Assembly: GCA_964609095.1 (NCBI GenBank) | Contig: CAZSQN010000001.1 | Coordinates: 11,901-75,900 of the forward strand | Length of the DNA: 64,000 nucleotides | From: an uncultured Gammaproteobacteria bacterium | GTDB taxonomy: Bacteria; Patescibacteriota; Patescibacteriia; CAZSQN01 | Direction: 5' to 3' | Shown: positions 20,324 through 52,996 of the stretch, in pieces | How positions within the stretch are numbered: position 1 is the stretch's first letter | Layout of the letters: every line of letters starts with the position of its first letter | The notes under the pieces: model-generated | Databases searched by the model: none | What the model was told of the DNA's origin: nothing | The model's input: the letters and a program-made list of their open reading frames with translations, nothing else | Translations under genes and position numbers: made by a program

Positions 20324-21466
20324 ATGAAATTTTCCTGCACACGAGAGAACTTGGCGCAAGCGCTTTCCATCGTCAGCCACATAACTTCAAAAAATATCCA
20401 ACTGCCCATCCTTAATAACGTTTTGATGAAAACCGACGGAAAGATATTGAAATTTTTCTCAACTAATTTGGAAATATCCATTTCCTGCTTAGTGCGAGGG
20501 CATGTTGAAGAGGAGGGTTCATTCACTGTTCCTTCAAAACTTTTTTCCGATTATGTCGGATTATTGCCCAATGACAGGATTGATTTAGAGCTTCGTAACG
20601 ATGACACTATTAATGTTGTCTGCCAAAGCCATGAAACCAAAATTAAGGGCGTTTCAGCCGTTGATTTTCCCCTTTTTCCAAAAGTGCAAACAGATTCAAA
20701 ATTCAGAATTAACGCCAAGGATTTAAAAGGAGCGATTGAAGGGGTTATTTTTGCCGTTTCGCCAAATGAAACAAGGCCGGAGATAAGCGGCGTTTTGTTT
20801 GATTTTAGGCCTGATGGCGTTAATGGAAAATTAATTCTTGCCGCCACAGACAGTTATCGCTTGGCGGAAGCCACAATTGGCTTGCATGGAGAAGGAAACG
20901 GCTCAAAAGTAATTATTCCGTCAAGAACAGCCGCGGAATTAATGAGAATATTATCAATAAAACGGGATGATATGTCCGAGGGCGAATCGGTTGAGGTCTC
21001 AATTGGCGAGAGCCAGATTGTCTTTGCTTATGACAGCATTGAACTCATCTCTCGCATTATTGAAGGAAGATACCCGGAATATTCGCAAGTCATCCCTGAT
21101 TCTTTTGGAACAGAAATGACCGTAGAAAAAGAAGTATTGGCCGGAGCCGTCCGCGCGGCGTCTCTTTTTTCAAAGTCGGGCCTGCACGATGTGACTATTG
21201 CCGTAGAAGACGGCGGGGAGGTGCTTATTTCTTCGGCTGATAATCAGATCGGCGAAAATAAGAGCAAAATAAAAGCTGAACTAAAAGGCAGGGAAAATAC
21301 GACCACCTTGAATTATAGATATCTTTTGGACGGGGTGGGCAGGATAACGTCAAATAAGATCTTTTTTAGAATGGTGGACGGCGTGAGCCCGTGCGTGATA
21401 ACCCCCGGCGTTGGCGCTAACGAGATTCAAAAGTATGTTTATATTGTCATGCCGATCAAACAATAA
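20324..21466 (+). CDS. dnaN: DNA polymerase III beta sliding clamp
   Basis: 380-aa three-domain clamp; MKFSCTRENLAQALSIVSHI N-terminus. Confidence 0.95.
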   Translation: MKFSCTRENLAQALSIVSHITSKNIQLPILNNVLMKTDGKILKFFSTNLEISISCLVRGHVEEEGSFTVPSKLFSDYVGLLPNDRIDLELRNDDTINVVCQSHETKIKGVSAVDFPLFPKVQTDSKFRINAKDLKGAIEGVIFAVSPNETRPEISGVLFDFRPDGVNGKLILAATDSYRLAEATIGLHGEGNGSKVIIPSRTAAELMRILSIKRDDMSEGESVEVSIGESQIVFAYDSIELISRIIEGRYPEYSQVIPDSFGTEMTVEKEVLAGAVRAASLFSKSGLHDVTIAVEDGGEVLISSADNQIGENKSKIKAELKGRENTTTLNYRYLLDGVGRITSNKIFFRMVDGVSPCVITPGVGANEIQKYVYIVMPIKQ

Positions 21467-24401: not shown

Positions 24402-24487
24402 GATAGGATTGAAGAATTATTGTTTAACAACGGTCTTTTGTCAACCCCTGCTAGAAGCTACTTTATTATAACACGCGCGAAGATTGA

Positions 24488-24594
24488 CCCCGCACATAAC
24501 CTTCATAAATATCATTAGATAATTTTGTCGAAACTTCGGTTACATAAAATTACCCAAAATAAGTTAAGTTATTTGTATAGGTTTATGTGCGGGG
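24488..24594. mobile_element. MITE/REP-like element copy A (CCCCGCACATAACC ... GGTTTATGTGCGGGG), 107 bp
   Basis: terminal inverted repeat; interior is the reverse complement of the interiors of copies B and C (shared gggtaatt(a/t)tatgtaaccgaagt(c/t)(c/t)cgacaaaatt). Confidence 0.6.
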
Positions 24595-24719
24595 TGGACA
24601 AAATAGATTTTTTTTGATAATTTTAAGCCAATTGCCCCCGTATCTGCGCTTCGCTTGATTCAGGAGCTCATTCGGCGAAAATGTCTCCGACGAGTCGGAA
24701 CCGCTTTGCGCCTCATTTC

Positions 24720-26447: not shown

Positions 26448-26714
26448 ATGAAAGTTTTAATTTACTCAACTAAAACCTGCCCTTTTTGCAAAATGGAAAA
26501 GGAATATTTAACTCAGAAAGGCGTCGCCTTTGAAAATATTTTTGTTGATGAAGATGAAACAAAAGCGGAGGAAATGACGCGTAAAAGCGGGCAAATGGGC
26601 GTGCCGGTAACGGTTGTCACCGGCGACGACGGCAAGGAAGAGGTAGTAGTTGGTTTTGATAAAGAAAGATTAAACCAAGTTTTGGGCTTAAACCCCGCAC
26701 TTAAACCCACATAA
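26448..26714 (+). CDS. glutaredoxin-family protein (NrdH/YruB-like)
   Basis: CPFC active site, 88 aa; its stop codon lies inside MITE copy B. Confidence 0.8.
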   Translation: MKVLIYSTKTCPFCKMEKEYLTQKGVAFENIFVDEDETKAEEMTRKSGQMGVPVTVVTGDDGKEEVVVGFDKERLNQVLGLNPALKPT

Positions 26715-26798
26715 ATAACTTAACTTGTTTTGGGTAATTATATGTAACCGAAGTCCCGACAAAATTGCTTAATGATATTTATGAGGTTATGTGCGGGG
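26693..26798. mobile_element. MITE/REP-like element copy B (106 bp), followed by TTGACA-17-TATTAT promoter-like sequence
   Basis: termini CCCCGCACTTAA / TTATGTGCGGGG; interior near-identical to copy C; gtgcggggTTGACAtaaaaatcagaaaagatTATTATaatcc directly after the element. Confidence 0.65.
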
Positions 26799-26852
26799 TT
26801 GACATAAAAATCAGAAAAGATTATTATAATCCTAGTTGGTGACTAGGATTAT

Positions 26853-29494: not shown

Positions 29495-29502
29495 ATTAAA
29501 TG

Positions 29503-29686
29503 CCCCGCACATAACTTTGCTTATTGCTTTAGCGCGATGCGGGAACTAGAGGAAGGCCGATTAAATCGGATTAAAAGAAAAGATTTTAATAGCACGACTA
29601 AACATAAAAAATAATAAATTTACCTAATTTTTAAGTCCGACATATAACATAAATTATGTTTCGGATTAAGCAAATTATGTGCGGGG
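29503..29686. mobile_element. MITE/REP-like element copy D (184 bp) ending 1 nt before ferredoxin ATG
   Basis: termini CCCCGCACATAACTT / AAATTATGTGCGGGG. Confidence 0.55.
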
Positions 29687-29687
29687 T

Positions 29688-29957
29688 ATGCCCAAACTGC
29701 GAATAAAAGTTGATCCGGATTTGTGCATCGGCGCCGCTTCCTGCGTTGCCATAGCCGAGAATTATTTTGAACTTAACGCCGACAACAAAGCGGCCGTTAA
29801 GGACCCCGAGCTTCCGATGGACCCGGATGTTTTTGAGCGGGAAATTGTCGTCACCGAAGAGCAAAAAGAGCTTATTTTAATGGGTGCGCGCTCCTGCCCG
29901 ACTCTGGCCGTTTTTGTCTACGATGAAAACGGGAAACAATTGTTTCCGGAAACATGA
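29688..29957 (+). CDS. ferredoxin (single [4Fe-4S]-type)
   Basis: MPKLRIKVDPDLCIGAASCVAIAENYFEL ... ARSCP pattern; start at ATG 29688 rather than GTG 29679. Confidence 0.75.
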   Translation: MPKLRIKVDPDLCIGAASCVAIAENYFELNADNKAAVKDPELPMDPDVFEREIVVTEEQKELILMGARSCPTLAVFVYDENGKQLFPET

Positions 29958-31132
29958 TAAAGTGCGAGTATTTAATACTTGGCGGAGGGATCGCCGGCTG
30001 GACCGCGGCTGAAACATTGCGCGCCGCCTTGCCCGAAGCGGAGATAATTTTAGTAAACGAAGAAAAGCACCCGCTTTATTCACGGGTGCTTTTACCGCTT
30101 TATGTAAAAGGAAAAATTCCTCGCGAGAAGGTCTTTTTAAGGCCGCCAGATTATTTGGCCAAAAATAATATTAAATCGTTTGCGGGCGCTCGCGCCATCG
30201 GCGTGAATCCGGCAAGCAAGACCGCGGCGCTTAATAACGGCGGGGAGATTAATTATCAAAAATTACTCATAGCCACGGGCGGCGCTCCGGCGGCGGTAGA
30301 GGAAAAGAATCTGCCCGGCGCGCATTTCTTTAGAACTTTGGATGACGCCGACGGCATCGTCTCCGGCCTTGGTTCGCTTCGGGCCGGAGCTCCTTGCGCC
30401 GCTCTTGGTTCCAGCTTCATCGCCCTTGAATTCCCGTCTATTTTTGAAAAATTCGGGATGAAGACGCTTTTGGCCATGCGCGGACCCGGGTTTTTCCACC
30501 GTCTTTTGGACCGCGACTCCATGGATTTAATTGAAGCGGAGATAATCCGGCACGGAGGGCAGGTGCTTAAAAATCAGAAAGATTTTGAAACCGTTGAGGC
30601 GGATTTTTTTGGATTGGGATTGGGGATGGAAAAAAACACGGATTTCGCGCGGGCGGCCGGCATTGGAGCGGAAACAGGCATTTTAACCAACGAGTATCTG
30701 GAAACCAACATACCCGATATCTGGGCCGCGGGCGATGTGGCGGAGTTTTATGATGTGATTGCCGGCAAACACAGAATATCAGGCAATTGGATGAACGCGG
30801 AAGCTCAAGGCAGGATGGCCGCCGCTAACATGATGGGCGAACATCTAAGATTTGAAACGGTCTCATCTTATTCTATGCCCGTTTTTAACCTCGCCATTAC
30901 CTTTGTCGGCGATGTGGCCGCGGATGAATCAACCAAAATTATTATCAGGTGCTCGCGCGAGGCAAAATCGCTGGTCAGGATTTTAATAAAAGACAATTTG
31001 GCCCGGGGGGCGACGCTTTTAGGCAGAAATTTAGATCGCGGGCCGCTGACGGCGCTTATTGGCAGGCGCGCGCCTCTTGCCGTGAGGCCGGAACTAAGCG
31101 ACCCCGATTTTGATTTGAAGCAACTTTTATAG
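29954..31132 (+). CDS. FAD-dependent pyridine nucleotide-disulfide oxidoreductase (ferredoxin/rubredoxin reductase-like)
   Basis: N-terminal GxGxxG (LILGGGIAGW), second dinucleotide fold, GDVAEF motif. Confidence 0.8.
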   Translation: MIKCEYLILGGGIAGWTAAETLRAALPEAEIILVNEEKHPLYSRVLLPLYVKGKIPREKVFLRPPDYLAKNNIKSFAGARAIGVNPASKTAALNNGGEINYQKLLIATGGAPAAVEEKNLPGAHFFRTLDDADGIVSGLGSLRAGAPCAALGSSFIALEFPSIFEKFGMKTLLAMRGPGFFHRLLDRDSMDLIEAEIIRHGGQVLKNQKDFETVEADFFGLGLGMEKNTDFARAAGIGAETGILTNEYLETNIPDIWAAGDVAEFYDVIAGKHRISGNWMNAEAQGRMAAANMMGEHLRFETVSSYSMPVFNLAITFVGDVAADESTKIIIRCSREAKSLVRILIKDNLARGATLLGRNLDRGPLTALIGRRAPLAVRPELSDPDFDLKQLL

Positions 31133-31330
31133 AAGTTAAAAAAATTTTTGGCCAGCCGGGCGGTTTTTCCGTATTTTATAAAATATGGCGGGCTGTGGAT
31201 GAAAATATTTTTTAATCGTGGTACATTAATCGCAGATGCGCGCAATTGGCGCAGCTCCGCGGTCATCGCAGCCATGCTTGGCGATGACCGCTTTTTATTT
31301 TATCGCGATGATGTGAAATATGATAAAAAA

Positions 31331-31360
31331 ATCCCTTCTCCGGCAGGAAAAGGGATTAAA
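31331..31360. terminator. bidirectional terminator (aatcccttctccggcaggaaaagggatt)
   Basis: stem with flanking A/T runs between convergent genes. Confidence 0.5.
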
Positions 31361-32582
31361 TCAGTTCGCGGATTTGTTTATTGAAGGAAGAATACGGCTT
31401 AAATTCCATCAGCCGCGCGTTTAGAGAGCCGTCAGAGAAATGCTCAACCAGAACAAACGTCAATTTGGTTTGGGAAACAAGCTTTGGCCGGCGCAACTTC
31501 CTTTTAATATTCCTGAACGGCCGTTCCAGCGAACGGAAGCTGTTCCAACTGTAAAACTCCGGTTCCTCGGCTTTGTCATAGCATCTCGTCCAGGTGCCTG
31601 AATTTATATAAGTGCCCGATTTCGGGCCGCGGGAGATGGTCACTCTCATGGCCTCGTGGTCATGTCCGCAGACGACGACTTTGATTTCCGGCCGGTTTTC
31701 AAAAATACGCCGGGCGTATTCTTTGAGGTCATAACCGGTCATTGTCCAGAGCAGGATTTTTATGGTGGTGGCAAAACTGGCCTTTTTTCTTAAATCCCAA
31801 AAAGCGAAAAATCTGTTGTGGATGAATACCCAGACGTAGAGCGCCAAAGCAAAAATGCCAAAGTACCAGTCGCGCAGGGCCGACTCAACCCAGATTAATC
31901 CGTTGGCGCGCAACCGTCCGACCAGCGGATTTTTAAGCTTGAGCCGATTGGCAAGGTCTACGGTAAGAAAGGTTCCGTATGGGTAGTTTAGGAGCGGCCG
32001 TTTGAGCTTAACGCCATAGCGCGTTGTCAGATATTTGTTTTCCGGCGTGACCGTATGCGGCTCAATATTGCCGTGGAAATAATGCACGCCTTGATGGTCT
32101 TCGCTATAAAGGAAACGCACTTTTTCCGGGCAGTTTTTGGCAATCCGCAAAACGACCATTTTCTGCACGCCGGCCCACTCAAGGAAGAAATCGTGGTTGC
32201 CGATAAATATGTCAACCGTCCTTCCGGGCGATTCCAAAAATCTGGAAAGCGAGTCAAAGACGCGGGTGTGGCCGCGGATGATTTTTTTCATTTTATAGCG
32301 GTGCACTGCTTCATAAGGCATATCATAATTTCTGCCATGGAAAAACACCGACTGCGAATCAAAAATATCTCCGCCGAGCTTGAGGCGAACCTTTGGAATA
32401 TTCTGGAATCGGCTTAAAATAGTACTTATGAAGCGGCTGAACTCGTAATCATGTTCAAATTCCTCCAGAATATCTTTACTGCCGTCGGGCAGATAAAGGC
32501 CGGATCCAAGGTGCAGGTCTGATACCCAGACAATTACCTCTTCCGGCGACTCTTTTCCCCGGTTTAACGCGTATTCCATCAT
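31356..32582 (-). CDS. calcineurin-like metallophosphoesterase with internal TM segment
   Basis: motifs WVSDLHLG, GGDIFD, GNHD, GHDH, NSGTW; start at MMEYAL (ORF-track N-terminus overlaps divergent neighbour and is not used). Confidence 0.75.
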   Translation of the reverse strand: MMEYALNRGKESPEEVIVWVSDLHLGSGLYLPDGSKDILEEFEHDYEFSRFISTILSRFQNIPKVRLKLGGDIFDSQSVFFHGRNYDMPYEAVHRYKMKKIIRGHTRVFDSLSRFLESPGRTVDIFIGNHDFFLEWAGVQKMVVLRIAKNCPEKVRFLYSEDHQGVHYFHGNIEPHTVTPENKYLTTRYGVKLKRPLLNYPYGTFLTVDLANRLKLKNPLVGRLRANGLIWVESALRDWYFGIFALALYVWVFIHNRFFAFWDLRKKASFATTIKILLWTMTGYDLKEYARRIFENRPEIKVVVCGHDHEAMRVTISRGPKSGTYINSGTWTRCYDKAEEPEFYSWNSFRSLERPFRNIKRKLRRPKLVSQTKLTFVLVEHFSDGSLNARLMEFKPYSSFNKQIRELI

Positions 32583-32661
32583 TGTCTCCTGTTTGTAAAA
32601 GATCCGGTTTGAGATTAACATAGATAAACAGCATTGACAACGACTTTTAACAGAAGGGGCT

Positions 32662-33714
32662 ATGAATATAATCTCCATTTCCGACATCCATCTTTGCCGC
32701 GGCGAAGCGGACGGTTTTTGTTTTGATAAAGAACTGTCAAGATTCTTAAGGCATGTTATCAGCCACCTTTCTCCATTTGAAATTATTCTGAACGGTGATA
32801 TTTTTGATTTAATCGCGATTGAAGACGAGGGCGATATGGCGCAGATTTTAGCCGAAATAAACAAAGAGCACGCGCTTGTTTTTGACGCTTTTCGCGAAGT
32901 TGCGAAGAAGGGGCATTTGGCGCTGGTGCCGGGAAACCATGATTATCATCTTAAAGATGAAACGATTTCCAGCATTGCCGGCGCTTTAATTCCTGGGATA
33001 GAAGTAATAACTTCGGGAATATACAGAACGGGAGACAAATCGGGAAATGTTTATCATTTTGAGCATGGAGACGCGCATGATCCGTGGTCATCCCTTGTTT
33101 CGCCGCAAAGCAACGCGCCGGCCAAAACCAATATGATTGTAAAGAATCTGATCCAGGAATTTTTGCGGCATCCGTTGAAGATTTTGACCAGCAGTCCCGG
33201 CGGAGCGGCTTCCGAGGCCTTGCAAAGAGTGATTAAAAAAATCAAGCTGGCGGAACACGAGAGAAAGCTGTTTGAGGACAGAGTCGTGCCTTTAATAAGA
33301 AGATTTAAGGTTAATCCGAAAACGCTTTGGGAATTGGCGGCGAGCTTATCGGCGCGGCGATTAAAAAAATTCGGCAAGATTTATATGGATATGGTGGGCG
33401 CCGAAATGGCCACGGGCGAGGGACCTCATTACAGAGAAGCGGCCGGTCGCATAGCCAAAAGTATGCCGGGGACAGCTTTGCGCGTTGTCGGTTTCGGCCA
33501 TACGCATAAGCCAGAAGTGGCTGATTTGGAAGGCGGAGCGATTTATGCAAATAGCGGCACCTGGGGGCGTGATATAAGCAAAGATGACGAGGGAGAGAAA
33601 TTCTATGAGATAACCAAAGGAACATATCTTCTTTTTAATCAGGACACTTTGCGTTTGAGGCAGCTAATTTTAAACTATTTTATTCCTCCCACCAGGCGGT
33701 TGGTTATGAAATAA
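32662..33714 (+). CDS. calcineurin-like metallophosphoesterase (paralog of 31356-32582)
   Basis: motifs SDIHL, NGDIFD, GNHD, GHTH, NSGTW; divergently transcribed from its paralog. Confidence 0.8.
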   Translation: MNIISISDIHLCRGEADGFCFDKELSRFLRHVISHLSPFEIILNGDIFDLIAIEDEGDMAQILAEINKEHALVFDAFREVAKKGHLALVPGNHDYHLKDETISSIAGALIPGIEVITSGIYRTGDKSGNVYHFEHGDAHDPWSSLVSPQSNAPAKTNMIVKNLIQEFLRHPLKILTSSPGGAASEALQRVIKKIKLAEHERKLFEDRVVPLIRRFKVNPKTLWELAASLSARRLKKFGKIYMDMVGAEMATGEGPHYREAAGRIAKSMPGTALRVVGFGHTHKPEVADLEGGAIYANSGTWGRDISKDDEGEKFYEITKGTYLLFNQDTLRLRQLILNYFIPPTRRLVMK

Positions 33715-33820
33715 CCCCGCACATAAACCTACATAAATGACTTAATTTATCTTGGGTAATTATATATAACCGAAGTCCCGACAAAATTATCTCATAATAT
33801 TTTTGAGGTTATGTGCGGGG
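33715..33820. mobile_element. MITE/REP-like element copy C (106 bp), begins 1 nt after MPE stop; followed by TTGACG
   Basis: termini CCCCGCACATAA / GTTATGTGCGGGG; interior near-identical to copy B. Confidence 0.65.
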
Positions 33821-33922
33821 TTGACGAGCCGGTTTTTTTATGTTAAGGTGAGCAATGCTCTTTACAATTAAAATTGGCTGAAAAAACAGCAACAAAACAA
33901 CCACCAAGAAGGAGAAAGAAAA

Positions 33923-34180
33923 ATGGCCAATGAAAACGATGACCGCGATCAAAATCGCGGCAGAGGAAAGAATCAGACGCAAGGAAGCGGCGAAATGCAA
34001 CGCCGTCTTGCCGCGCTGGAGGCGGAGATTCTCCGTTTGAAGTCGCCGGTGGTAAAATGCGCTTTTTGCGCCGGCACCGGCTCCCAGCCGGATAAAGACG
34101 GCAAACCGCTGATTGATGGAGACGACCACCCGATTCCGTGCTTGGTCTGCAGCGGTCGCGGCAAAGTCAGGATTCCGTAA
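33923..34180 (+). CDS. small zinc-ribbon protein (CxxC ... CxxC), basic N-terminus
   Basis: KCAFCAGTGS ... PCLVCSGRGK; first gene of GC-rich block. Confidence 0.5.
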   Translation: MANENDDRDQNRGRGKNQTQGSGEMQRRLAALEAEILRLKSPVVKCAFCAGTGSQPDKDGKPLIDGDDHPIPCLVCSGRGKVRIP

Positions 34181-34200
34181 GACGAGGAAAGGGAGAAAAA

Positions 34201-35013
34201 ATGGATATCGGCGAAAAGATCAAAGATGTAGTGGCCGGCGTCAAGCCGGACCATCCGCACGGTTTGCTCTCCGACGCTTGGCAGCAGGCGGTCCATCGTT
34301 TCGGGCCGAAGATTGCCAAAGCAATGTGGGAAGCGTTTCCCAACGAAGTCAGGGAGAAGCTTTCCGAGGGTTGGGTTAAAGAACTTTTTCAGGGCGTTTC
34401 TCTTCTTGTTGCGCAGGTTTTGCCTAACAAGGGCATTGCCCAGATGATTGACGCGCTTCAGGTTGAGGTGGCCGCGGAATTGCACGAGCTCGCCTCGGCC
34501 CATAAGAAAGGTGAACCAGAACAGGAAAAAGGAACTTCCGTCTCTGCCGGTTCTCCGCCAGTGGCAGCGCGGTATGGAGTTGAGGGAACGGAAAAGATTT
34601 TCCGTATTGAGTTTGAGCGCGCGGAAAAATTGATTGTTTGGTTTGCCTCTGCCGTGGCCGCCGGGATTGACGGCAAAGAACTTGCTCAGTTCCTGAATGG
34701 CCTTACTTTGGCCGAGCTGCGCGTCTTCGCCGACAGCGATGACGACGCCAAGCGCGTGTACGCGGCCGAGCGGCTAAAGGAGCCAGTTCCCAAGGTTAAT
34801 TCAGAATCATTGGCAAGGAAAATTGTCAACTGGTTTGGTAGCCGTTGGGAAGCGGCCAAGGCATGCGCGAGCGAAGTTAACTCCGGCCTTGAGGAAATCG
34901 CGTTGATTCAAGAGAGGGAAACTTTGATGCTTGAACAAGCGCTTGAGGAGAAACGCGCGGAACTGCGCAGGCCGCCCGCCTTGTGGGAGCGTCTGCAGTT
35001 CTGGAAGCTCTAA
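34201..35013 (+). CDS. hypothetical protein (271 aa)
   Basis: RBS aggaaagggagaaaaa before ATG 34201; GC-rich codon usage; no motif recognised. Confidence 0.55.
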   Translation: MDIGEKIKDVVAGVKPDHPHGLLSDAWQQAVHRFGPKIAKAMWEAFPNEVREKLSEGWVKELFQGVSLLVAQVLPNKGIAQMIDALQVEVAAELHELASAHKKGEPEQEKGTSVSAGSPPVAARYGVEGTEKIFRIEFERAEKLIVWFASAVAAGIDGKELAQFLNGLTLAELRVFADSDDDAKRVYAAERLKEPVPKVNSESLARKIVNWFGSRWEAAKACASEVNSGLEEIALIQERETLMLEQALEEKRAELRRPPALWERLQFWKL

Positions 35014-35029
35014 GAAAGGAGAAGATGAA

Positions 35030-36325
35030 ATGACCGCTATCGTCTTGGGATACCTGCGGCGTTTTGGATTGCGGGCCCAGATTTTGGGCCTTAGCGTCTG
35101 GAACAGTTTGCGGCTTTTCTTTGGACGGGCCGCAAGCGCCGTTTATATCGGAATTATTTCCCTTTTCGTGTTTCTGGTTCCCGGCGCGTTTATCGGCTGG
35201 ATTGGATACATTACCGACACCGAGTGGGCGATCGGGCTCGGCCAGTTCCTGATTTCGCTCTCCGGCGCCATTGTCACCGGAGTTCTGGCCGTCTTCTACC
35301 TCAAGATAGGCGTGATTACCACGCATGTCTTGGTGGGGATTGACGGCGTTCTGGAATTTGTTTCCCGCGGCAAGATTAAGAATTTCTTCTCCAAGGACAT
35401 GGGAGCAAACATCAGGCAGGATCTGCTAAACGCCTTCGCGTGGGTAGCTGTCTTCCTGCTGTGGTGCTCGGTTGTTCCCGTTTGGAAGCATCCGACGGCG
35501 GTGCCGTTGGGGGCCACCTTTTCCTTGTTTTTTGCCTTTGCTTCGTCAAGACTCTGGGAGCTTACCCAAAAGAGGATTGGCAAGGCCGTTGTTTTTACTC
35601 TCCTGGCGCTGGCCTTTGTTTTCCACTCTTTCAATGTCTGCATGGGCGGAGCAATGTCGCTTTGGGTTTCGGCCAAAGGCGATGTTGCCGGCGCGTCCAT
35701 TAGAACCGGAGTGGCGGCGGAATCCGGCCGCGAAGAGATTCTTGAAGAGAGGATTTCCTACGAAGAAGCTATGTCCAAAGTCAGGGTGGCGGAGTATCGC
35801 AACCTTGGCGCAAGGCAAATCTGGCTTTCTTCCGTTGGCCAAGAGAACTCTGCCGAATTTAGGCGTAACGCTCGCCGTATGCGTGAGCTTGAAAGCGGCA
35901 ATCGTCCGGTAAAAAGAAATGTTGCTCCAAATGGAGAGGGCAGCTCAAGTTTCGCGGCTGGCGTCGGCAAACTTGCCGAGCTTGCCGGCGCTAACTGGGG
36001 CTGGCTGCTCATTGGCGGCCTTTCCGTTTTCCTGTTTGCCCTGTTCATTGTCGGGTTGGTTGCCAAACGCAACTGGCTTGCGGCTATGGCGCTTGCCGGT
36101 TTGCTTCTCGCGGGATTTGCCGGAGTTGGATATTGGCTTTTGAGCATGGATTCCGGCCGGACTACGGAGTCCGCAGTAGAGGTTCCGCGCGAGCCGCCAA
36201 TTCGTGAGCCGCTAACTCATCCGGAAACGAGGAGAGCGGCGCGGCGTTCTTGCGGAGGATGTTCTAAAATTCGCGCCGAAGTTGAAGACATCGGGAGAAA
36301 TCTTGATGTCCTCGCGGCGCAATAA
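35030..36325 (+). CDS. hypothetical polytopic membrane protein (431 aa)
   Basis: RBS aaggagaag; multiple hydrophobic helices; C-terminal CGGCSK; GC-rich (sampled 60-mers 34/60 and 38/60 G+C). Confidence 0.6.
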   Translation: MTAIVLGYLRRFGLRAQILGLSVWNSLRLFFGRAASAVYIGIISLFVFLVPGAFIGWIGYITDTEWAIGLGQFLISLSGAIVTGVLAVFYLKIGVITTHVLVGIDGVLEFVSRGKIKNFFSKDMGANIRQDLLNAFAWVAVFLLWCSVVPVWKHPTAVPLGATFSLFFAFASSRLWELTQKRIGKAVVFTLLALAFVFHSFNVCMGGAMSLWVSAKGDVAGASIRTGVAAESGREEILEERISYEEAMSKVRVAEYRNLGARQIWLSSVGQENSAEFRRNARRMRELESGNRPVKRNVAPNGEGSSSFAAGVGKLAELAGANWGWLLIGGLSVFLFALFIVGLVAKRNWLAAMALAGLLLAGFAGVGYWLLSMDSGRTTESAVEVPREPPIREPLTHPETRRAARRSCGGCSKIRAEVEDIGRNLDVLAAQ

Positions 36326-36339
36326 CATACCTGTTCTTT

Positions 36340-36530
36340 AATTTAATACCCTCTGACAAATTGTCAGAGGGATTTTTTTAAAAAAATCCCGCGATACTTT
36401 TTATAGTATCGCGCGGGCTCGAATTCAGCTTTTGTCAATCGTCATTGACAAAAGAATGAATTTGTGGTAAAAGTATATATTCGCTCTTTTGATAAATCCA
36501 GCACATAATCTATGTGCTGGATAAGAAAAG
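36340..36530. promoter_or_regulatory. cluster of five near-perfect palindromes in one intergenic region
   Basis: ctctgacaaattgtcagag; gggatttttttaaaaaaatccc; cccgcgatactttttatagtatcgcgcggg; ttttgtcaatcgtcattgacaaaa; tccagcacataatctatgtgctgga, all read directly. Confidence 0.45.
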
Positions 36531-36543
36531 AAAGGAAAGAAAA

Positions 36544-36984
36544 ATGGTCGGACCGCTCCGTATCGCGTTTGTTTTTTTCATTGTTTCCGGCTGCGGATTT
36601 TCCGCAACGCGGACTGAAGTGAATTCCGCCGGACGCTATTCCACCCGCGGCTATTGCCTGGGAGTTGGTTGCGCCCCTGACTATGGCTTGGGCAATGCTT
36701 GGGTTCCCGGCATTGCGCCGCCATACCCATTCTCTCCCTCTGACGCGCGGTTCGGAGCCGTTGAGGCCTACCGGGCGCGCAATCGCTGGGTAAGAACTCC
36801 CTCTTCGACTTCGCTCGGGACAGCCCCCTCGACTTCGCTCGGGACAGGGGAAGCGAGAGACCCTCGCGTCGCGCCGCTTATCCGCGAGGTTCAGCGGCAG
36901 AACAATGTGCTACGCGAGCTGGAGCGCGAAGTGTGCGAAAATTCCGATGACGAATGCGCAACGGATGAAAGGAGTTCAAGATGA
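36544..36984 (+). CDS. lipoprotein with tandem 9-aa repeat (TPSSTSLGT APSTSLGTG)
   Basis: signal peptide with lipobox VSGC; direct nucleotide repeat at 36796-36850. Confidence 0.6.
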   Translation: MVGPLRIAFVFFIVSGCGFSATRTEVNSAGRYSTRGYCLGVGCAPDYGLGNAWVPGIAPPYPFSPSDARFGAVEAYRARNRWVRTPSSTSLGTAPSTSLGTGEARDPRVAPLIREVQRQNNVLRELEREVCENSDDECATDERSSR

Positions 36985-37457
36985 AAAACTATTGCGTTTT
37001 GGCTGCTTTTCTTTGTTCCTGCGGCTACTCCACTTATCAGTACGATACGCCACACAGCCAGTCATACGGCGATTATGGCGGCGAAGCGAGCTACGCGGCG
37101 AGTTCGGCGCAGATCGCGGTTCCGGTTTCGCCGGCTAACCAGTGGGGTTGCGCTTTGCCGCTTCAGCTGGAGATCAGAAATCCGTCGCGAGAGTATGACG
37201 TGGTGGTGCACGCGCACCGGCTGGTGGATGACGGCACCACTTTTGAGACATCCGTAAATGTGCCTCGCGCGGGAAGCAGAATCATTTGCCTGCCCGACAT
37301 AGGCGCGTATTCTTTTGAAACCGAGTATTATCTTATCTCGCACGGCGTTCCGCAGCTTATGGGCTGCGGAATTGAGCGGGCAGAGTACGGTTTCTATACC
37401 AACTACGACGGCCGGCACGGGTTCCGCGTTTACCCGCGGCCCGACCGTTCTTGCTAA
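36981..37457 (+). CDS. putative lipoprotein / secreted hypothetical protein
   Basis: N-terminal hydrophobic segment ending CSCG; overlaps upstream stop (ATGA). Confidence 0.55.
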   Translation: MKNYCVLAAFLCSCGYSTYQYDTPHSQSYGDYGGEASYAASSAQIAVPVSPANQWGCALPLQLEIRNPSREYDVVVHAHRLVDDGTTFETSVNVPRAGSRIICLPDIGAYSFETEYYLISHGVPQLMGCGIERAEYGFYTNYDGRHGFRVYPRPDRSC

Positions 37458-37470
37458 GAGCAAAGTTCAT

Positions 37471-37510
37471 TAAACCGCAACACCTCCGCATCCGCGGAGG
37501 TGTTTTTTTG
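37471..37510 (+). terminator. rho-independent terminator (cacctccgcatccgcggaggtg + tttttttg)
   Basis: perfect 9-bp GC-rich stem followed by T7. Confidence 0.7.
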
Positions 37511-37538
37511 TAAGCGTGAATTTTGTTAGGGTCCATGT

Positions 37539-37928
37539 TCAAGCCGCGGCTTGAGTGAGCGCGCGGACAACAAATTGCGCGATGCCGTAAGCCAAGACGA
37601 TAATAATCAGACCAATGACCGAGTTTTTAATAATGTCTTTTGCTTTGGTCACCTGGTCTTCGTTTCCGGCGGCTGTCATCCAGAGAAAACCCCCGTAAAG
37701 GATAAGCACAAGCAGGATGGTGCCGATGATGCCCATGGCATAACTTATGATTGTTCCCACTAGCGTGGCCAGAGAAGTTTGGCCGCCGGCGCCCGGGAGC
37801 CGCGCGCTTCTGGCGGTTTCTTCAAGCCCGAATCCTCCCTCGGCCCCGTTTTGAGCCAACGTCAGAGAAGGCGCAATCAGGCCGGCTAATGATATTGAAA
37901 GCTTGAATATCTTTTTTAATTGTTTCAT
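37539..37928 (-). CDS. VirB2/TrbC-like pilin-type small membrane protein, paralog 1
   Basis: signal peptide, then hydrophobic hairpin with conserved YGGFLWMTAAGNEDQVTKAKDII ... GLIIIVLAYGIAQFV. Confidence 0.65.
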   Translation of the reverse strand: MKQLKKIFKLSISLAGLIAPSLTLAQNGAEGGFGLEETARSARLPGAGGQTSLATLVGTIISYAMGIIGTILLVLILYGGFLWMTAAGNEDQVTKAKDIIKNSVIGLIIIVLAYGIAQFVVRALTQAAA

Positions 37929-38058
37929 AAGAATTATTCACTTTCGTGAAGCGGGTTCTATGATCTCATTTGGCGGAATCATAGGCCCCGCTCCACAAGA
38001 ATGCAGATAAAGGGCCCCTCTATAAGAGAACGGCGACGACGCGTCGTGTCGTCCTTCT

Positions 38059-38421
38059 CTACACTGCCGCGGCAGTAAGCGACCGCACGACAAAGCTGGC
38101 AATCGCGTAAGAGGTGACAACGATAATTAAGCCGATAACTCCGGCTGTGATAATCTTTTTGGCTTCCCCAACCTTTTCCTCGTTTCCTCCGGCTGTCATC
38201 CAGGTAAAGCCGCCCCAGAGAATAATCAATACGGCGACAATGCCCAAAAATCCCATAGCCACATTGATGATTCTGGTGATGACCACGCGCACATCAGCGG
38301 TTGGAAGCGCGATTTCTCTCTGCACTTCTTCCAGACCAAGATTCAATTCGGCCGCTTTGGAGACGAGCGGCATCAAAGCCGCGCCAATTCCAGCGCCGAT
38401 TTTAACAAGCATTTTTTTCAT
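38059..38421 (-). CDS. VirB2/TrbC-like pilin-type small membrane protein, paralog 2
   Basis: WGGFTWMTAGGNEEKVGEAKKII ... GLIIVVTSYAIASFV. Confidence 0.65.
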   Translation of the reverse strand: MKKMLVKIGAGIGAALMPLVSKAAELNLGLEEVQREIALPTADVRVVITRIINVAMGFLGIVAVLIILWGGFTWMTAGGNEEKVGEAKKIITAGVIGLIIVVTSYAIASFVVRSLTAAAV

Positions 38422-38441
38422 TTATATCACCTGCCTTTCTT

Positions 38442-38512
38442 GTTAGGGTTTAGCGTTTAGGGTTTAGGGTTTAGTTTTTCACTAAACGCTATACGCTATA
38501 CGCTGAACGCTT
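38442..38512. repeat. heptamer-repeat hairpin family copy 3: (GGGTTTA/GCGTTTA)x4 - loop - (TAAACGC/TATACGC)x4
   Basis: gttagggtttagcgtttagggtttagggtttagtttttcactaaacgctatacgctatacgctgaacgc read directly; between pilin paralogs 2 and 3. Confidence 0.6.
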
Positions 38513-38851
38513 TTACCCGGCCGAGCGGGTTAATGCTCCTATGACAAAGTTAAGTATAGCATAAGCGGCAAAGATTGTGGCTATGCCTAATGTTGCCCAG
38601 ACCAGAGTATCCTTGCCTTTTTTTACTTTTTCGTCATTGCCGCCGGAGGTAAGCCAGAGAAAGCCGCCGTAGATAAACATAAGCAAGGCAATTGAGCCGA
38701 CAATCCCCAGCGCGGCGCGGATAATGTTGGCAATAATAATTCTTATATCCGAAGTGCCTAAAGGGTTGGGCAATTCGCCGGCAAAGGCGGGAAGGGCTAC
38801 TAAGAGATAAGAGATAAAAACTATAAGAGATAAAATTTTTTTTAATTTCAT
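38513..38851 (-). CDS. VirB2/TrbC-like pilin-type small membrane protein, paralog 3
   Basis: YGGFLWLTSGGNDEKVKKGKDTL ... ATIFAAYAILNFV. Confidence 0.65.
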   Translation of the reverse strand: MKLKKILSLIVFISYLLVALPAFAGELPNPLGTSDIRIIIANIIRAALGIVGSIALLMFIYGGFLWLTSGGNDEKVKKGKDTLVWATLGIATIFAAYAILNFVIGALTRSAG

Positions 38852-38876
38852 AAATGTTTTCGTTTAGTGTCTCCAC

Positions 38877-40241
38877 TTATCCTCCCTCCGAAGTTGTTTT
38901 ACAGCAGATGTTAAGTCGTCCGCCCGGGCAATAACCCTGCAAACACTCCCCGCTGTCTATTTTTGACTGAAATTCCGCCTCATTAATCTCGGTGCATTCA
39001 AAGGAGGTTGTTTCCGTGCTTAGATCCTGACATCGGCTGCCCGCTATTTCTCTTGTGATAAGCGTTTGTTGGGCAAAGTTTATGATTGTCGCGGCTCCGA
39101 ATATTATGATAAGTCCGATAACCGCTCCGGTCAATATCTTTCTTCCTTCGTCAACCTGCTCCGCCACGCCGGCGGCTGTAAGCCACTTAAATCCGCCGTA
39201 GATAAACATAAACAGAGCCAGCGAGCCGGAAATGGCCAATATCAGCCGGACAATGTTAATGCCTACCTGTATAAGCTGTGGCAGGCCGCATTTACTAGTT
39301 TCGGTGGCGCCGCGGGTGCAGGCCTCCGGGATAAGACGGGGTAAAAAACTTCTGCCGCCTCCGGCTTCTTCGCTTCCGCCGGCTTGCTCCGGAGGAAGCG
39401 CGGCCCCGCCGCAAATATCAGGGTCGCTGGACACGCTTACAAAATTTCCATCGCCGCATTTGGTCGGGCACGCTTGGTTGCCGTCTTCATCCGGCAGCAG
39501 CGGCTGGGCAATTCCGTCGCGGCATAGGCAGCAGTTGGCGCCGCGGCGCCCGGCCTCTTCTTCCGCGCATTTTTTCGGCCGGCCGGAGCAAACGCCGGAG
39601 AAACATTCCGTATTTTCATTGCAGTTTTCTCCCCCGCTTTTTTTGTTCTCGCAGTTTCCCTGCGGCGCGCAGTATTGGCCAATAAGGCAATCTCTTTCCG
39701 CGGTACATCGGCAGATGCCGCCATCACATCTGCCGGAAGCGCACGTGTCTTCCGGTCTGCAGGCCTCGCCGACTCTTTTAGGCGGCGCGCCGGTCTCGCA
39801 AGCCCCGCCGGAACAACGGAAACCATCCGGGCAATCGCTGTTTAAGACGCATCTTCTGGCGCAGGTGCCTTCTACGCAGCTCCCGCTTTGGCATTGGAGA
39901 TTGCCTTGAGGGCAGGCGCCGCCGTCGCTTACTTTATTAACGCAAACATCATTGCTGCAATATTGGGACGGGTTGCCGCAATGGCTATCGTCTCCGCAAT
40001 CCTCGGCGCAGCTCCCATTATCGCAGGCGCCGCCAAGGCATTCCTGCCTGTTAAAGCAGCTTGAACCATCGGCTTTTTGATTAACGCAGCGGCCGCTGCC
40101 GCAGTATTGAAATGCTTGGCAATCAGTAATTGAGCCGCAATCCTGCGCCAAAGTTTTTTGAGGCAAAAATAAAATAACTCCAATAAAAATGGCAATAAAT
40201 ATGGTAAGCTTATGGCTTATAGCTTGCAGCTTATAGCTCAT
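38877..40241 (-). CDS. large pilin-like protein with an N-terminal cysteine-rich repeat domain, an embedded VirB2/TrbC-like hydrophobic domain and a Cys-rich C-terminal tail
   Basis: signal peptide; four ~45-aa repeats of 8 Cys each (DCxxxxDCxxxQYCxxGRCVNxxxDGxxCxxxxxCxSGxC); then YGGFKWLTAAGVAEQVDEGRKIL ... GLIIIFGAATIINFA as in paralogs 1-3; 454 aa. Confidence 0.65.
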   Translation of the reverse strand: MSYKLQAISHKLTIFIAIFIGVILFLPQKTLAQDCGSITDCQAFQYCGSGRCVNQKADGSSCFNRQECLGGACDNGSCAEDCGDDSHCGNPSQYCSNDVCVNKVSDGGACPQGNLQCQSGSCVEGTCARRCVLNSDCPDGFRCSGGACETGAPPKRVGEACRPEDTCASGRCDGGICRCTAERDCLIGQYCAPQGNCENKKSGGENCNENTECFSGVCSGRPKKCAEEEAGRRGANCCLCRDGIAQPLLPDEDGNQACPTKCGDGNFVSVSSDPDICGGAALPPEQAGGSEEAGGGRSFLPRLIPEACTRGATETSKCGLPQLIQVGINIVRLILAISGSLALFMFIYGGFKWLTAAGVAEQVDEGRKILTGAVIGLIIIFGAATIINFAQQTLITREIAGSRCQDLSTETTSFECTEINEAEFQSKIDSGECLQGYCPGGRLNICCKTTSEGG

Positions 40242-40243: not shown

Positions 40244-41659
40244 TTATCTTATTGTCTGATTTACTTTTTCCGCCGTAAAGCGCAGCGCCTCCCGCGCCGG
40301 CAGGGCGCCGGAGATAGTTGATTCAATCATATCAATAAACGCTTTTTCCGCCGACCCCGCGTCTTTGCCTCGGTACCAGCTCTGGGCCGTAAGGGTTTGA
40401 TTGGCAAAAGGCGCCAAGTCCTCGTCTTCCAATTGCCCGCTGATAAGCGCTCTTAATGCGGTTGGCCGGCGGGCCTTGTCCAGATATTTTTTAACCTGTT
40501 CGGCGCCGGCTAAAAATTGCACAAAGTCCCAGGCCTCGTTTGGGTTTTTGGTTTTGCGCGACACCGACTCAATCCAATAGTTGGCGAAATTTATTTCCGG
40601 GTTGCCTTCTATCTGCGGGGCCGGAGCAATGCCCAAATTCAGCTTTGGCGCGCGGGCGCGGATTAGCGGAAGATGATAAGAGTAGCCGAGGAACATCGCG
40701 GATTTGCCGGCGACAAATGCTTCAAATGAAGACGGCATCAGGCCGTTCCAGGTATAAACATCTTTGCCCGGATTGGCAAAATCGGTATAGAAAATGAGCG
40801 CTCCCTCGCCCGGAAGGTCCGGGCGACCAGCCAGCTCGCGGGGCAGCGTATGAAAAGCGGCAAATCCGCTCTCGTCCGTCATTTTGGCTCCGTTTTGCAT
40901 CATTAAGAGCGAGAGAATGTCAAAAGCCCGCTCCACATTTCTGCCCGAACCAATGGCGGCTCCGGCTTGGAGAATGGCGCCGCGGTTATCAAGCCGGGTG
41001 AGCCGCTTTACCGCCTGCTGGAATTCGCTCCAGGTTTGCGGCGGTTGGGGTATTTTGGCCGCGTTTAGAAGGTCGCGGTTATAATAGAGCACCAAAGAAT
41101 CAACAAAAAGAGGCAAGCCGTAGACGCGGTCGGTGACTTCTTCAGGTTTTTTTTCGTCCGGGGTCGGGATAACCGCATCGGCGTAAACCGTGTCTACAAA
41201 GTCGTTGCGCAGCTGGCGCAAAGTGAGCGACGGTTTGGTGCGCAATACCGTCACTTCTTCTTTTTTTATAGCGCCTTGTATCTCGCGGGTGGCGACGGTT
41301 GTTTGCGGCGGCAGAGGAAGCAATTTTGATTGATAGCCGCGCATCCATGTGTTGTGAACGGAAAATATGTCCGGTCCGCGGTCTTCCGCCAAAGCGTTTA
41401 AGAGCTCGCGCTCATATTCTTCCGGCCGCAGTTTTCTGTATTCAACCTGCACGTGAGGATGAAGCGCGCGGTAAGCGGCTATGACATCGTCAAAACTGTC
41501 GGAATCGTCAAAGACGCGCCAATATTTTAACGTAAGCGGTTTGGAAGCTCGCTGGGCCTCTTGCGGCGCGATGCGGCAGGCGCCTCCGAAAAAAATTAAA
41601 AAAGCCAGCAATCCGGTTAAGGCCACTCGCGGTTTTTTAGAAAGTTTTCCTCCGAACAT
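40244..41659 (-). CDS. ABC transporter extracellular solute-binding lipoprotein (family 1, sugar-type)
   Basis: signal peptide with lipobox FGGAC; MalE-like fold by length and composition; start at MFGGKLSK. Confidence 0.8.
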   Translation of the reverse strand: MFGGKLSKKPRVALTGLLAFLIFFGGACRIAPQEAQRASKPLTLKYWRVFDDSDSFDDVIAAYRALHPHVQVEYRKLRPEEYERELLNALAEDRGPDIFSVHNTWMRGYQSKLLPLPPQTTVATREIQGAIKKEEVTVLRTKPSLTLRQLRNDFVDTVYADAVIPTPDEKKPEEVTDRVYGLPLFVDSLVLYYNRDLLNAAKIPQPPQTWSEFQQAVKRLTRLDNRGAILQAGAAIGSGRNVERAFDILSLLMMQNGAKMTDESGFAAFHTLPRELAGRPDLPGEGALIFYTDFANPGKDVYTWNGLMPSSFEAFVAGKSAMFLGYSYHLPLIRARAPKLNLGIAPAPQIEGNPEINFANYWIESVSRKTKNPNEAWDFVQFLAGAEQVKKYLDKARRPTALRALISGQLEDEDLAPFANQTLTAQSWYRGKDAGSAEKAFIDMIESTISGALPAREALRFTAEKVNQTIR

Positions 41660-41660
41660 A

Positions 41661-41756
41661 CCCCGCACATAATTAATAATTAAATAAATTGTAATTTTAA
41701 CCATTGTTCTCCTATTTCCCCGCAACATATATTAACCATATAAGTTATGTGCGGGG
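41661..41756. mobile_element. MITE/REP-like element copy E (96 bp) between SBP start and galU stop
   Basis: termini CCCCGCACATAATT / AAGTTATGTGCGGGG; interior contains a second ccccgcaacat half-site. Confidence 0.55.
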
Positions 41757-42680
41757 CATATTTTTAAGGTATTCCCCAAATTGTTCTCCCACATCAGGAT
41801 GTTTGATGCCTAATTCCACTTGCGCGATTAAAAATCCAAGCTTGGTGCCGCAATCATAGCGCTTGCCTTCGTGAAGTTTGGCATAGATGGGCCGCCCACC
41901 TTTAAGATATGTTTCAAAAGCGTTGGCCAGGCGAATCTCGCCGTCGCGTCCCGGCTTTTGCGCCAAAAGAACCTTCATCATCTCCGGCGTGATAATGGCC
42001 CGGCCGACGAAAATAAGATTGGACGGAGCTTCTTTTGGAGACGGTTTTTCCACAAAATCGCTTATTTCCCAAAGATTGGAAGCTATTTTTTTGCCGTCAA
42101 TTACTCCATAGTGACTTACTTCTTTTTTAGGCACTTCGGAAACGGTAATGACGGGGTCGTTATAACGATGATAGGTTTCCATTAGTTCTTTTAAGGCCGG
42201 TTTTTTACTGGTGATAATGTCGTCGCCAAACATTACGGCTACCGGTTCGTGCTCGTCTACAAAAGGCAGAGCGGAGAGTACCGCGTGGCCGTCGCCCAAG
42301 GGCGCGCCTTGCCGCACAAAGGAAAAATTGGCCAGCTTGCTTATTTTGGCCACTTCTTCCAGCTCTTTTTTCTTTTTCTTTTCGCGCAGCCGGTATTCCA
42401 GTTCAAAATTTCTGTCAAAATGGTCCTCAATGGCGCGTTTGCCCATGGAAGTGACGAAGATGATTTCTTCTATGCCCGAGGCAACAGCTTCTTCCACTAT
42501 ATATTGAATAACCGGCTTGTCCACGACCGGCAGCATTTCTTTGGGCTGGGCTTTGGTCGCCGGCAGGAATCTGGTGCCCAGTCCGGCAACGGGAATAATG
42601 GCTTTTTTTACCCCGTTAGAGACCGCGAGAGCTCGCAGCGCGCTTATGTCCCTAACTGGGTTCACTGATTTTTGCGTCAT
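41745..42680 (-). CDS. galU: UTP-glucose-1-phosphate uridylyltransferase
   Basis: KKAIIPVAGLGTRFLPATKAQPKEMLPVVDKP signature; start at MTQKSVNP. Confidence 0.85.
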   Translation of the reverse strand: MTQKSVNPVRDISALRALAVSNGVKKAIIPVAGLGTRFLPATKAQPKEMLPVVDKPVIQYIVEEAVASGIEEIIFVTSMGKRAIEDHFDRNFELEYRLREKKKKKELEEVAKISKLANFSFVRQGAPLGDGHAVLSALPFVDEHEPVAVMFGDDIITSKKPALKELMETYHRYNDPVITVSEVPKKEVSHYGVIDGKKIASNLWEISDFVEKPSPKEAPSNLIFVGRAIITPEMMKVLLAQKPGRDGEIRLANAFETYLKGGRPIYAKLHEGKRYDCGTKLGFLIAQVELGIKHPDVGEQFGEYLKNMPRT

Positions 42681-43173
42681 AGAATTGATTCTTCCTAACT
42701 TTATCATTATATCCTGTTAGAAGTTTAAGTTCAATTTTTTGTGTTATGGGTGCGTCGGTTAAGTCGGCTTCGGAACTGCCCGCAGGCAAAGGTAAGTCAA
42801 AAAAATAATAGAGGCCTTCGGGCCTCTTTTTATATATAAAGAAAAAGATCAGCCGAGGCTGATCTGTGGGAAAGAGCGGGTGGTGATAAAGGAGCTAAAG
42901 AGCGAGGGTAGTTGGTGAGTGAAAGTTCACTCGGATTTTTTTGAGTTGGCCCTCGTAAGAGCTATCTTTATGATAGCATAGTAAAAAACCAGGTCAAACG
43001 CCTATCTGTGGATAAGTTTTAAGTCGGATTCCGAGACAAAAGAGGGGAAGAAATAACAATTTCTCATTCTATCATTTCCGCCAATTCGGCGGACAAGCGC
43101 GCGAATGAGAGAATGTTAAAATTGGAGGAAATAAAAAAGCCGGCAGCGCGTTAAGCGTAGCCGGTTATTGATG

Positions 43174-52985: not shown

Positions 52986-52996
52986 AAAACAAAATA

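Follow-up and report, generated by a model that had tools for sequence, protein, structure and literature searches.

A Predicted Lipoprotein Gene Pair Recurring Beside VirB2-Like Pilin Arrays, and the GC-Rich Five-Gene Block That Contains It in a Patescibacteria Genome

Five Genes Lie Beside a Pilin Array Near the Replication Origin

The window analyzed here, a 64-kb stretch of contig CAZSQN010000001.1, carries a block of five plus-strand genes, g1 to g5, that leads directly up to an array of VirB2-like pilin genes. The last two genes, g4 and g5, encode predicted lipoproteins and, judged from sequence, represent an undescribed pair of families that recurs beside such arrays. The analysis covered the window together with related contigs and pilin loci, labeled with L numbers (L001 onward). 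Independent gene callers agree on g1 (33923–34180, 85 amino acids, aa), g2 (34201–35013, 270 aa), g3 (35030–36325, 431 aa), g4 (36544–36984, 146 aa), and g5 (36981–37457, 158 aa), all of which have Shine-Dalgarno-like sequences upstream; the NCBI call for g4 instead starts at a GTG at 36514, giving 156 aa. A first-pass annotation, made from the DNA letters alone, had described five same-strand genes including a zinc-ribbon protein, a polytopic membrane protein, and two lipoproteins, and both gene calls and motifs agree with that description. Its length of 431 aa for the membrane protein is correct, whereas the 271 aa given for g2 should read 270 aa. It could not name a family for any of the proteins, and neither could we: g2–g5 reach no family threshold in Pfam, NCBIfam, PADLOC, or PHROGs, and g1 has only a sub-threshold match.

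The block sits in core chromosome close to the replication origin, with dnaA at 18662–20083 and dnaN at 20324–21466. Other core genes in the window encode PNPase, a class A penicillin-binding protein, trigger factor, IscS/NifU, RuvB, and PurA. As the first-pass annotation had stated, the pilin array follows the block directly. It consists of four genes for VirB2-like type IV secretion system (T4SS) pilins on the minus strand (37539–40241), encoding proteins of 129, 120, 112, and 454 aa. All four match Pfam PF18895 above threshold (48.5, 38.5, 42.3, and 30.5 bits; cut-off 26.6), none of g1–g5 does, and the pilin orthologues in L008 are 57–84% identical. The fourth pilin gene (38877–40241, minus strand; 454 aa) has a long Cys-rich, repeat-like N-terminal region with a weak DUF7107 match before its PF18895 domain; this architecture is kept in L008 at 64% identity.

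Both g4 and g5 encode a signal peptide ending in a lipobox cysteine (FFIVSGC in g4, AFLCSC in g5) and are thus predicted lipoproteins; in alignments the lipobox Cys is kept in all family members. The g4 protein has a middle part rich in Gly, Pro, and Tyr, a low-complexity repeat in two copies, and a coiled coil at its C-terminus. The repeat, previously noted as a tandem TPSSTSLGT, consists of two imperfect peptide copies (TPSSTSLGT/APSTSLGT) and is encoded by an exact 18-nucleotide (nt) DNA repeat at 36805–36822 and 36829–36846. The g5 protein contains a Cys-containing, probably beta-rich domain, and its gene is translationally coupled to g4, the start codon overlapping the g4 stop by 4 nt (ATGA). 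Searches with g5 gave no Pfam or PDB matches, and word-index protein searches with g4 and g5 returned self or near-self hits only.

The Block Is Probably Transcribed as Two Units

The spacer between g3 and g4 is unusually rich in inverted repeats. We found four perfect hairpins with stems of at least 10 bp and one with a 9-bp stem within 36349–36522, in line with the dense palindrome cluster noted at 36340–36530, and the entire window holds 14 perfect hairpins of at least 10-bp stem. RNA folding of 36326–36543 gave a z-score of −10. The first element (36349–36371, plus strand) has a 10-bp stem followed by seven T and reads as the intrinsic terminator of a g1–g3 unit. The 9-bp hairpin of the cluster (36390–36413) reads as a terminator on the minus strand. 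A perfect 11-bp palindrome (36429–36454) carries TTGACA in both arms and could serve g4–g5 as a −35 box or operator, and a perfect 12-bp hairpin (36496–36522) lies just 5′ of the g4 ribosome-binding site. The arms of this last hairpin resemble the terminal repeat of an element upstream of the block that is like a miniature inverted-repeat transposable element (MITE; see below), with two mismatches to the pattern. None of the five spacer palindromes recurs elsewhere in the window, no Rfam family reaches threshold in 33500–37700, and the dense cluster is found in this species only.

Terminator hairpins stand at the matching place in L008 (11213–11240) and L010 (2447–2497), and L008 has TTGACA-17-TATAAA before g4, at the position that matches the TTGACA palindrome of the window. 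Because a terminator follows g3 and a promoter-like site precedes g4, the former recurring in L008 and L010 and the latter in L008, the block appears to be divided into two transcription units, g1–g3 and g4–g5. The single module proposed earlier thus holds as a five-gene block and probably not as one unit. At the far end, the strong terminator that had been reported is present: it lies at 37479–37504 (plus strand), between the convergent g5 and pilin genes, with an 11-bp stem (7 GC pairs) followed by a T run.

The g4–g5 Pair Adjoins Pilin Arrays in Several Lineages

A metagenome scan with the pilin alignment yielded 80 pilin loci, whose open reading frames (ORFs) were searched by tblastn and with profiles. 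Pairs of g4-like and g5-like genes were found in four of them (L065, L038, L027, and L044). With the window, L008, L010, and L092, this makes eight loci from at least three lineages in which the pair adjoins a pilin array. In all eight, g4 precedes g5 and the 3′ ends of pair and array face each other tail-to-tail; several also have g4 and g5 overlapping by 4 nt. The gene on the far side of the pair is g3-like in the window, L008, L010, and L065, and rpoB in L038, L027, and L044. L008, L010, and L092 limit ascertainment bias, since they were retrieved via g3 or g5 and not via pilins. L010, reached through a distant g3 homologue (27% identity), shows the order 344-aa protein, g3-like protein, three lipoproteins, seven convergent pilins, SBP, and NTP_transferase.

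Orthologues of g4 are present in L008 and L092. A g4 profile built from L010, L065, and L038 gave strong hits in L027 and L044 and had the window g4 as its top non-seed match, at a weak E-value of 0.096. A g5 profile built without the window and L008 sequences placed L008 as the top non-seed match (E-value 7.5e-4 over 2498 ORFs) and recruited the window g5 after one iteration. Small lipoproteins or secreted proteins are also the first genes past the array 3′ end in many other CPR (candidate phyla radiation) loci, where they are likewise convergent and usually slightly higher in GC than their contig (L019 13031–14174, L042 2589–4094, L049 12658–13413, L061 13907–14449, L068 3640–4891, and L088 13678–14220). 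We did not count these as g4 or g5 homologues, as hhalign aligned their signal peptides only.

The pair evolves far faster than its neighbors. Between L038 and L044, protein identity is 95.5% for rpoB and 89% for SBP but 50% for the g4-like and about 28% for the g5-like protein, and the junction of pair and array persists where g5 identity is down to ~20–30%. Comparison of L038 11864–13128 with L044 11856–13082 shows that DNA similarity is lost across the g5-like gene and the last pilin gene (54% identical protein), i.e., the array end is hypervariable. Base composition of the pair is steadier: its GC stays at ~0.56–0.65 across lineages while genome GC spans 0.43–0.61, for which allele exchange between lineages, compositional constraint, and biased gene conversion are possible causes. 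The pair has a GC of 0.61–0.65 and a GC at four-fold degenerate third codon positions (four-fold GC3) of 0.63–0.77 in L038 (12378–13309), L027 (7194–8167), and L044 (12329–13263), on contigs of 0.43–0.44 GC. In these three loci it stands out as a spike in composition, 0.9 kb long and flanked by the last pilin gene and rpoB, and its four-fold GC3 lies far above background (z 2–4.7).

On balance we lean towards reading the block, located near the origin in the chromosome of a member of Candidatus Uhrbacteria (Patescibacteria/CPR), as an envelope module that is inherited vertically and evolves fast, and in which g4–g5 are accessory to the pilin array. The gene neighborhood, with eight loci joining pair and array, makes the functional link to the pilins plausible and lends support to an earlier suggestion of an envelope or pilus-associated system. 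In such a module, the translationally coupled g4–g5 unit would supply lipoproteins anchored on the outer face of the membrane, which could serve the pilin products as accessory factors, e.g., in anchoring, assembly, or host contact. The g1–g3 unit, with a cytoplasmic zinc-finger protein, a helical protein, and a membrane protein of seven transmembrane (TM) segments, would probably be its membrane-embedded partner.

Several observations weigh against this view. About 27 of the roughly 34 pilin loci with sufficient flank have no g4–g5, and the gene after g3 in L007 is unrelated. No block protein is detectably similar to any T4SS component or characterized family, there is no VirB4, VirB6, or VirD4 among the large ORFs of the window, and the AlphaFold2 (AF2) models obtained for g3 and g2 are both of low confidence (predicted local distance difference test, pLDDT, 61 and 49), hence they give no fold evidence. 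The homology that ties the window g4 to the distant loci is weak by its E-value, and that of g5 hinges on one iteration via L008. Amino-acid composition is not the whole cause of the GC excess, given the elevated GC at two-fold degenerate third positions (two-fold GC3) of the window block and the strongly elevated four-fold GC3 of the L038 lineage. The metallophosphoesterase gene pair that is constant upstream of g1–g3 in close relatives and the fusion of g1 to a Nudix domain in L008 point to a different function for these three genes. NTP_transferase and SBP are as syntenic with the arrays as the pair is, and the adjacency could therefore partly be inherited gene order without functional meaning.

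This last point can be carried further, to the view that the block is made up of hypothetical genes, specific to the lineage and evolving fast, that lie beside the array by inheritance and have no functional link to it. We regard this as the most credible of the alternatives, even if rather unlikely. In its favor, most arrays lack the pair, the block resembles no T4SS part, and pair and array are convergent and thus not co-transcribed; a tblastn search of the 80 pilin loci with the window SBP produced 33 hits, which were not collapsed per locus, so that up to 33 loci, with possibly more than one hit in each, carry the gene. It does not explain why the pair–array junction is kept while the gene on the far side switches from g3-like to rpoB, or why the junction outlasts the divergence of g5. 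In addition, the three loci that were found without pilins have the same adjacency, and the pair shares the fast-evolving, surface-like behavior of the terminal pilins. The order NTP_transferase, SBP_bac_1, pilin array is itself recurrent; it occurs in the window (40244–42707) and in L014, L021, L027, L028, L038, L040, L044, L050, L065, and L076, among others.

The envelope-module view also has a stronger form, in which g4–g5, together with the g3-family protein and its partner in some lineages, are the missing extracytoplasmic parts of the Patescibacteria VirB2-like pilus, e.g., a membrane anchor or host-contact factor, with hypervariable alleles that evolve or are swapped at a near-constant GC. 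We consider this form doubtful, a little more so than the purely inherited gene order. The near-constant GC of the pair would then point to inter-lineage exchange or an unusual compositional constraint.

Genes g1–g3 Are Restricted to a Small Clade and Follow Two Metallophosphoesterase Genes

The three genes of the putative upstream unit are confined to a tiny clade. The g1 protein is predicted to be cytoplasmic; besides a short coiled coil it contains two CxxCxGxG motifs, ~25 residues apart, as in a DnaJ-type zinc finger. Its match to the Pfam family DnaJ_CXXCXGXG (PF00684) is sub-threshold (E-value 0.035, 14.8 bits against a gathering score of 32.7) and, with a score below the cut-off and two motifs instead of four, g1 falls outside this family. 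The motif is kept in L006, L007, and L008; g1 shares 44% identity with its orthologues in L006 and L007, and in L008 (8189–9022) the g1 zinc finger forms the C-terminus of a 277-aa NUDIX hydrolase-domain protein (30.9 bits; cut-off 21.1). The fusion gene of L008 adjoins two metallophosphoesterase genes.

The g2 protein is all-helical and soluble; in its alignment a KPDHPH motif is invariant, and the C-terminus carries W-K-L. Its family has only 6 clusters among 5.8 billion. The positional orthologue in L008 (~25% identity) was detected solely by hhalign, at a probability of 96%, and no homology to g2 was detected in the partner proteins of L010 and L011 (344 and 358 aa). The AF2 model, from six sequences, had a pLDDT of 48.9 and was too poor to use.

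A hydropathy scan predicts g3 to be polytopic, with ~7 TM segments. Five N-terminal TM helices are followed by a helical domain of ~120 aa (about residues 207–325), a TM hairpin, and an Arg-rich tail. By the positive-inside rule, the N-terminus would be cytoplasmic, and the helical domain and tail would face outward. Distant g3 homologues are without the last TM hairpin, and in these the helical domain and tail would still share one side. The family has seven representatives among 1.84 billion proteins. No Pfam family matched g3 at an E-value up to 1, and no consistent Pfam hit was obtained with any family member. Its AF2 model from seven sequences was all-helical and too poor to use (pLDDT 61, predicted TM-score 0.33); Foldseek with this low-confidence model found nothing in the PDB at an E-value of 0.001 or below, and g3 and g5 profiles had no match among PDB sequences. 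Scans of genome contigs with the g3 alignment and with the metallophosphoesterase MPE_B, and a metagenome scan with the g3 alignment, gave no match; the species-representative set seems to be without the window's own genome, and absence from that set says little.

We considered g3 as a VirB6/TrbL protein. It has ~7 TM segments and a gene near pilins; no VirB4 was found among the large ORFs of the window, g3 has no Pfam match at an E-value up to 1, and none of the seven family members matches a T4SS model. Readings of the block as a defense system or prophage were rejected, as no PADLOC, PHROGs, viral, plasmid, or phage match was found, the PADLOC search of g1–g5 being extended to an E-value of 0.1.

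Upstream of g1 lie two genes for metallophosphoesterases. MPE_A (31356–32621, minus strand) encodes a 421-aa calcineurin-like metallophosphoesterase paralogue that matches Pfam Metallophos at threshold on a longer ORF. It lies outside the block yet is syntenic with g1–g3, being adjacent to MPE_B and g1–g3 in L006, L007, and L008, where its counterparts are 57–61% identical. MPE_B (32662–33714, plus strand; 350 aa, Pfam Metallophos E-value 3.8e-7) is divergent from MPE_A, lies directly 5′ of g1 in all close relatives, has a weak LpxH-like NCBIfam match, and is 60–63% identical to its orthologues in L006–L008. Neither protein has a match in PDB sequence searches. Two large genes without Pfam match (503–554 aa) lie between Pyr_redox and MPE_A in L006 (1401–4608) and L008 (2068–5239) and are absent from the corresponding place in the window (31132–31356).

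These neighbors open an alternative for one half of the block. According to it, g1–g3 and the metallophosphoesterase pair, joined by a Nudix hydrolase in L008, take part in the membrane-associated turnover of a pyrophosphate substrate, e.g., a nucleotide- or lipid-linked envelope precursor, and only g4–g5 are pilin-related. The order MPE_A, MPE_B, g1, g2, g3, which is kept in the window, L006, L007, and L008, would fit this function, as would the NUDIX fusion, the LpxH-like match, the terminator that parts g1–g3 from g4–g5, and the lack of lipoprotein genes downstream of g3 in L007. The distant homologues argue otherwise: no metallophosphoesterase genes adjoin the g3-like gene and its partner in L010, L065, and L011 where the contig permits a view, DUF2079 stands at that place in L011 and L065, and in L010 and L065 the two genes adjoin g4–g5 and pilins. 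Furthermore, no catalytic motif was identified in g2 or g3, the metallophosphoesterase genes are divergently or separately transcribed, and a MITE-like element separates MPE_B from g1 in the window. We judge this function of g1–g3 improbable.

Conserved Synteny and a GC Excess Shared With Relatives Argue Against Recent Acquisition

The first-pass annotation had singled out the block for a G+C content above that of its surroundings and proposed that it was horizontally acquired. The compositional difference is real. Block GC (0.546) is the maximum among sliding windows of the same size (3.5 kb) over the 64 kb (mean 0.481, standard deviation, sd, 0.025), and with individual values of 0.55–0.60, each of g1–g5 ranks at or near the top against the 56 other window genes (mean 0.482, sd 0.038). 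Measured against the 64 kb of the window, codon usage of g2–g5 is largely native: their overall synonymous codon log-likelihood lies in the normal range (z −0.7 to +0.2) and their four-fold GC3 shows no increase (z −0.5 to +0.3), but two-fold GC3 is elevated (z 1.4–3.8). The sliding-window GC and codon-usage check that had been proposed thus bears out the GC outlier and not a foreign overall codon usage. The proteins are enriched in Gly, Ala, Val, Arg, and Trp and depleted in Lys, Ile, Thr, and Asp; this amino-acid mix accounts for part of the GC excess, and the remainder is the raised two-fold GC3. The orthologous block of L008 is likewise GC-rich (0.52–0.59 against 0.42–0.51 in its flanks). 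We read the high GC as a conserved trait of the block genes and not as a sign of import.

L008 is collinear with the window over ~17 kb, comprising Fer4, Pyr_redox, MPE_A, MPE_B, g1–g5, four pilins, SBP, and NTP_transferase. The flanking genes SBP and NTP_transferase share 83% and 78% identity between the two, against 47% for g3, 52–57% for g4, 50% for g5, and ~25% for g2 in the block. Parts of the arrangement are also found in L006, L007, and L092, and a deeper version in L010 and L065. The block therefore occupies the same position in relatives, the kind of syntenic conservation that the first-pass annotation had itself named as evidence against acquisition. There is no integrase or transposase among the ORFs around the block, no direct repeats flank it, and no homologue of it was found in viral contigs, plasmids, or phages. 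No tRNA gene lies at its boundaries, the nearest being at 24.7–24.9 kb and 43.8 kb. Elsewhere in the window, ARAGORN predicts a tRNA-Ile with anticodon TAT (57027–57098, minus strand) that overlaps the start of a listed ORF (57060–57521); this anticodon is an uncommon bacterial route for reading AUA.

The MITE copy that was said to bound the block upstream is indeed there. This element (33713–33822) is 110 nt long and bounded by perfect terminal inverted repeats of 14 nt (AACCCCGCACATAA / TTATGTGCGGGGTT); being small, noncoding, and multicopy, it has the features of a MITE. Its terminal-repeat motif has 17 matches in the window, against 0.45 expected, which correspond to eight inverted pairs in 64 kb, and the copy at 26691–26800 is nearly identical. 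The intergenic element family with the terminal inverted repeat CCCCGCACATAA / TTATGTGCGGGG comprises 4632–4792, 24486–24596, 26691–26800, 29501–29688, 33713–33822, 41659–41758, 52995–53026, and 53593–53693; some copies are near-identical 110-nt elements, some are alike in their repeats only, and one is a bare 32-nt hairpin. The element at 33713–33822 was found only in the same-species contigs L001–L005 and, like the family as a whole, is absent from the related contigs L006–L011. Because it is missing in relatives that already have the MPE_B–g1 junction, we interpret it as a later insertion and not as the border of an island.

A recently acquired island, i.e., a foreign surface module of high GC bounded by the MITE and the terminator, would share with known genomic islands the raised local GC (with the raised two-fold GC3), the near-orphan genes, and the repeat element at one edge, and could draw on the compositionally foreign look of the pair in L038, L027, and L044, four-fold GC3 included, and on the sharp difference of g5 alleles between close relatives; yet with the block at the same site in diverged relatives, a GC excess common to the orthologues, native overall codon usage and four-fold GC3, no integrase, tRNA target, or direct repeats, no viral, plasmid, or phage matches, and a repeat that was inserted later, this reading is largely refuted for the present genome and is the least probable of those considered.

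Comparison With Known Systems

The zinc finger of g1 recalls the DnaJ Cys-rich domain (PF00684) and anti-TRAP (PF15777), as g1 and its orthologues have two CxxCxGxG motifs. DnaJ, however, has four such motifs and a J domain, which g1 lacks. Pfam scores in the g1 family are 14.8 and 19.1 bits, against the 32.7 bits required for PF00684, and the g1 finger is free-standing or, in L008, fused to NUDIX.

The g4–g5 pair invites comparison with VirB7-type and other accessory T4SS lipoproteins, which are small and encoded beside T4SS structural genes, like g4–g5 with their predicted position on the outer face. In diderm systems, VirB7 works at the outer-membrane core together with VirB9 and VirB10. 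In contrast, g4–g5 have no sequence similarity to these lipoproteins, and Patescibacteria systems are without a VirB9/VirB10 outer-membrane core. The related monoderm conjugation systems are not known to have pilins.

The closest parallel is with the pilin arrays of Patescibacteria themselves. VirB2-like arrays of 2–11 genes are widespread in CPR, often near dnaA, and essential in the one species tested (PMC12102498), and for a cultured Patescibacterium arrays and T4SS count among the small number of systems that its epibiotic life has been shown to require (reviewed in PMC12102498, PMC11665869). A relationship between the T4SS of Patescibacteria and the MPF_FATA class of monoderms has been described (PMC12102498). 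As in the arrays described by Quinonero-Coronel et al. (2025; PMC12102498), the block abuts PF18895 genes, four in number, the window array is origin-proximal, ~17 kb from dnaA/dnaN (18662–21466 versus 37539–40241), and g4–g5 are variable, as that paper reports for paralogous pilins within an array. Unlike in those arrays, the block proteins are not pilins and no VirB4, VirB3, or VirB6 is nearby in the window; lipoprotein companions do not appear in the searched text of the paper ('lipoprotein', 0 occurrences). Should the link to the pilins be false, the comparison still removes a false 'genomic island' call at a locus where GC excess alone misleads. If it is true, the fast-evolving lipoprotein pair at the array end is a concrete candidate for a missing pilus part or a host-specificity factor, and g4–g5 would add an undescribed pair of accessory genes to a known system.

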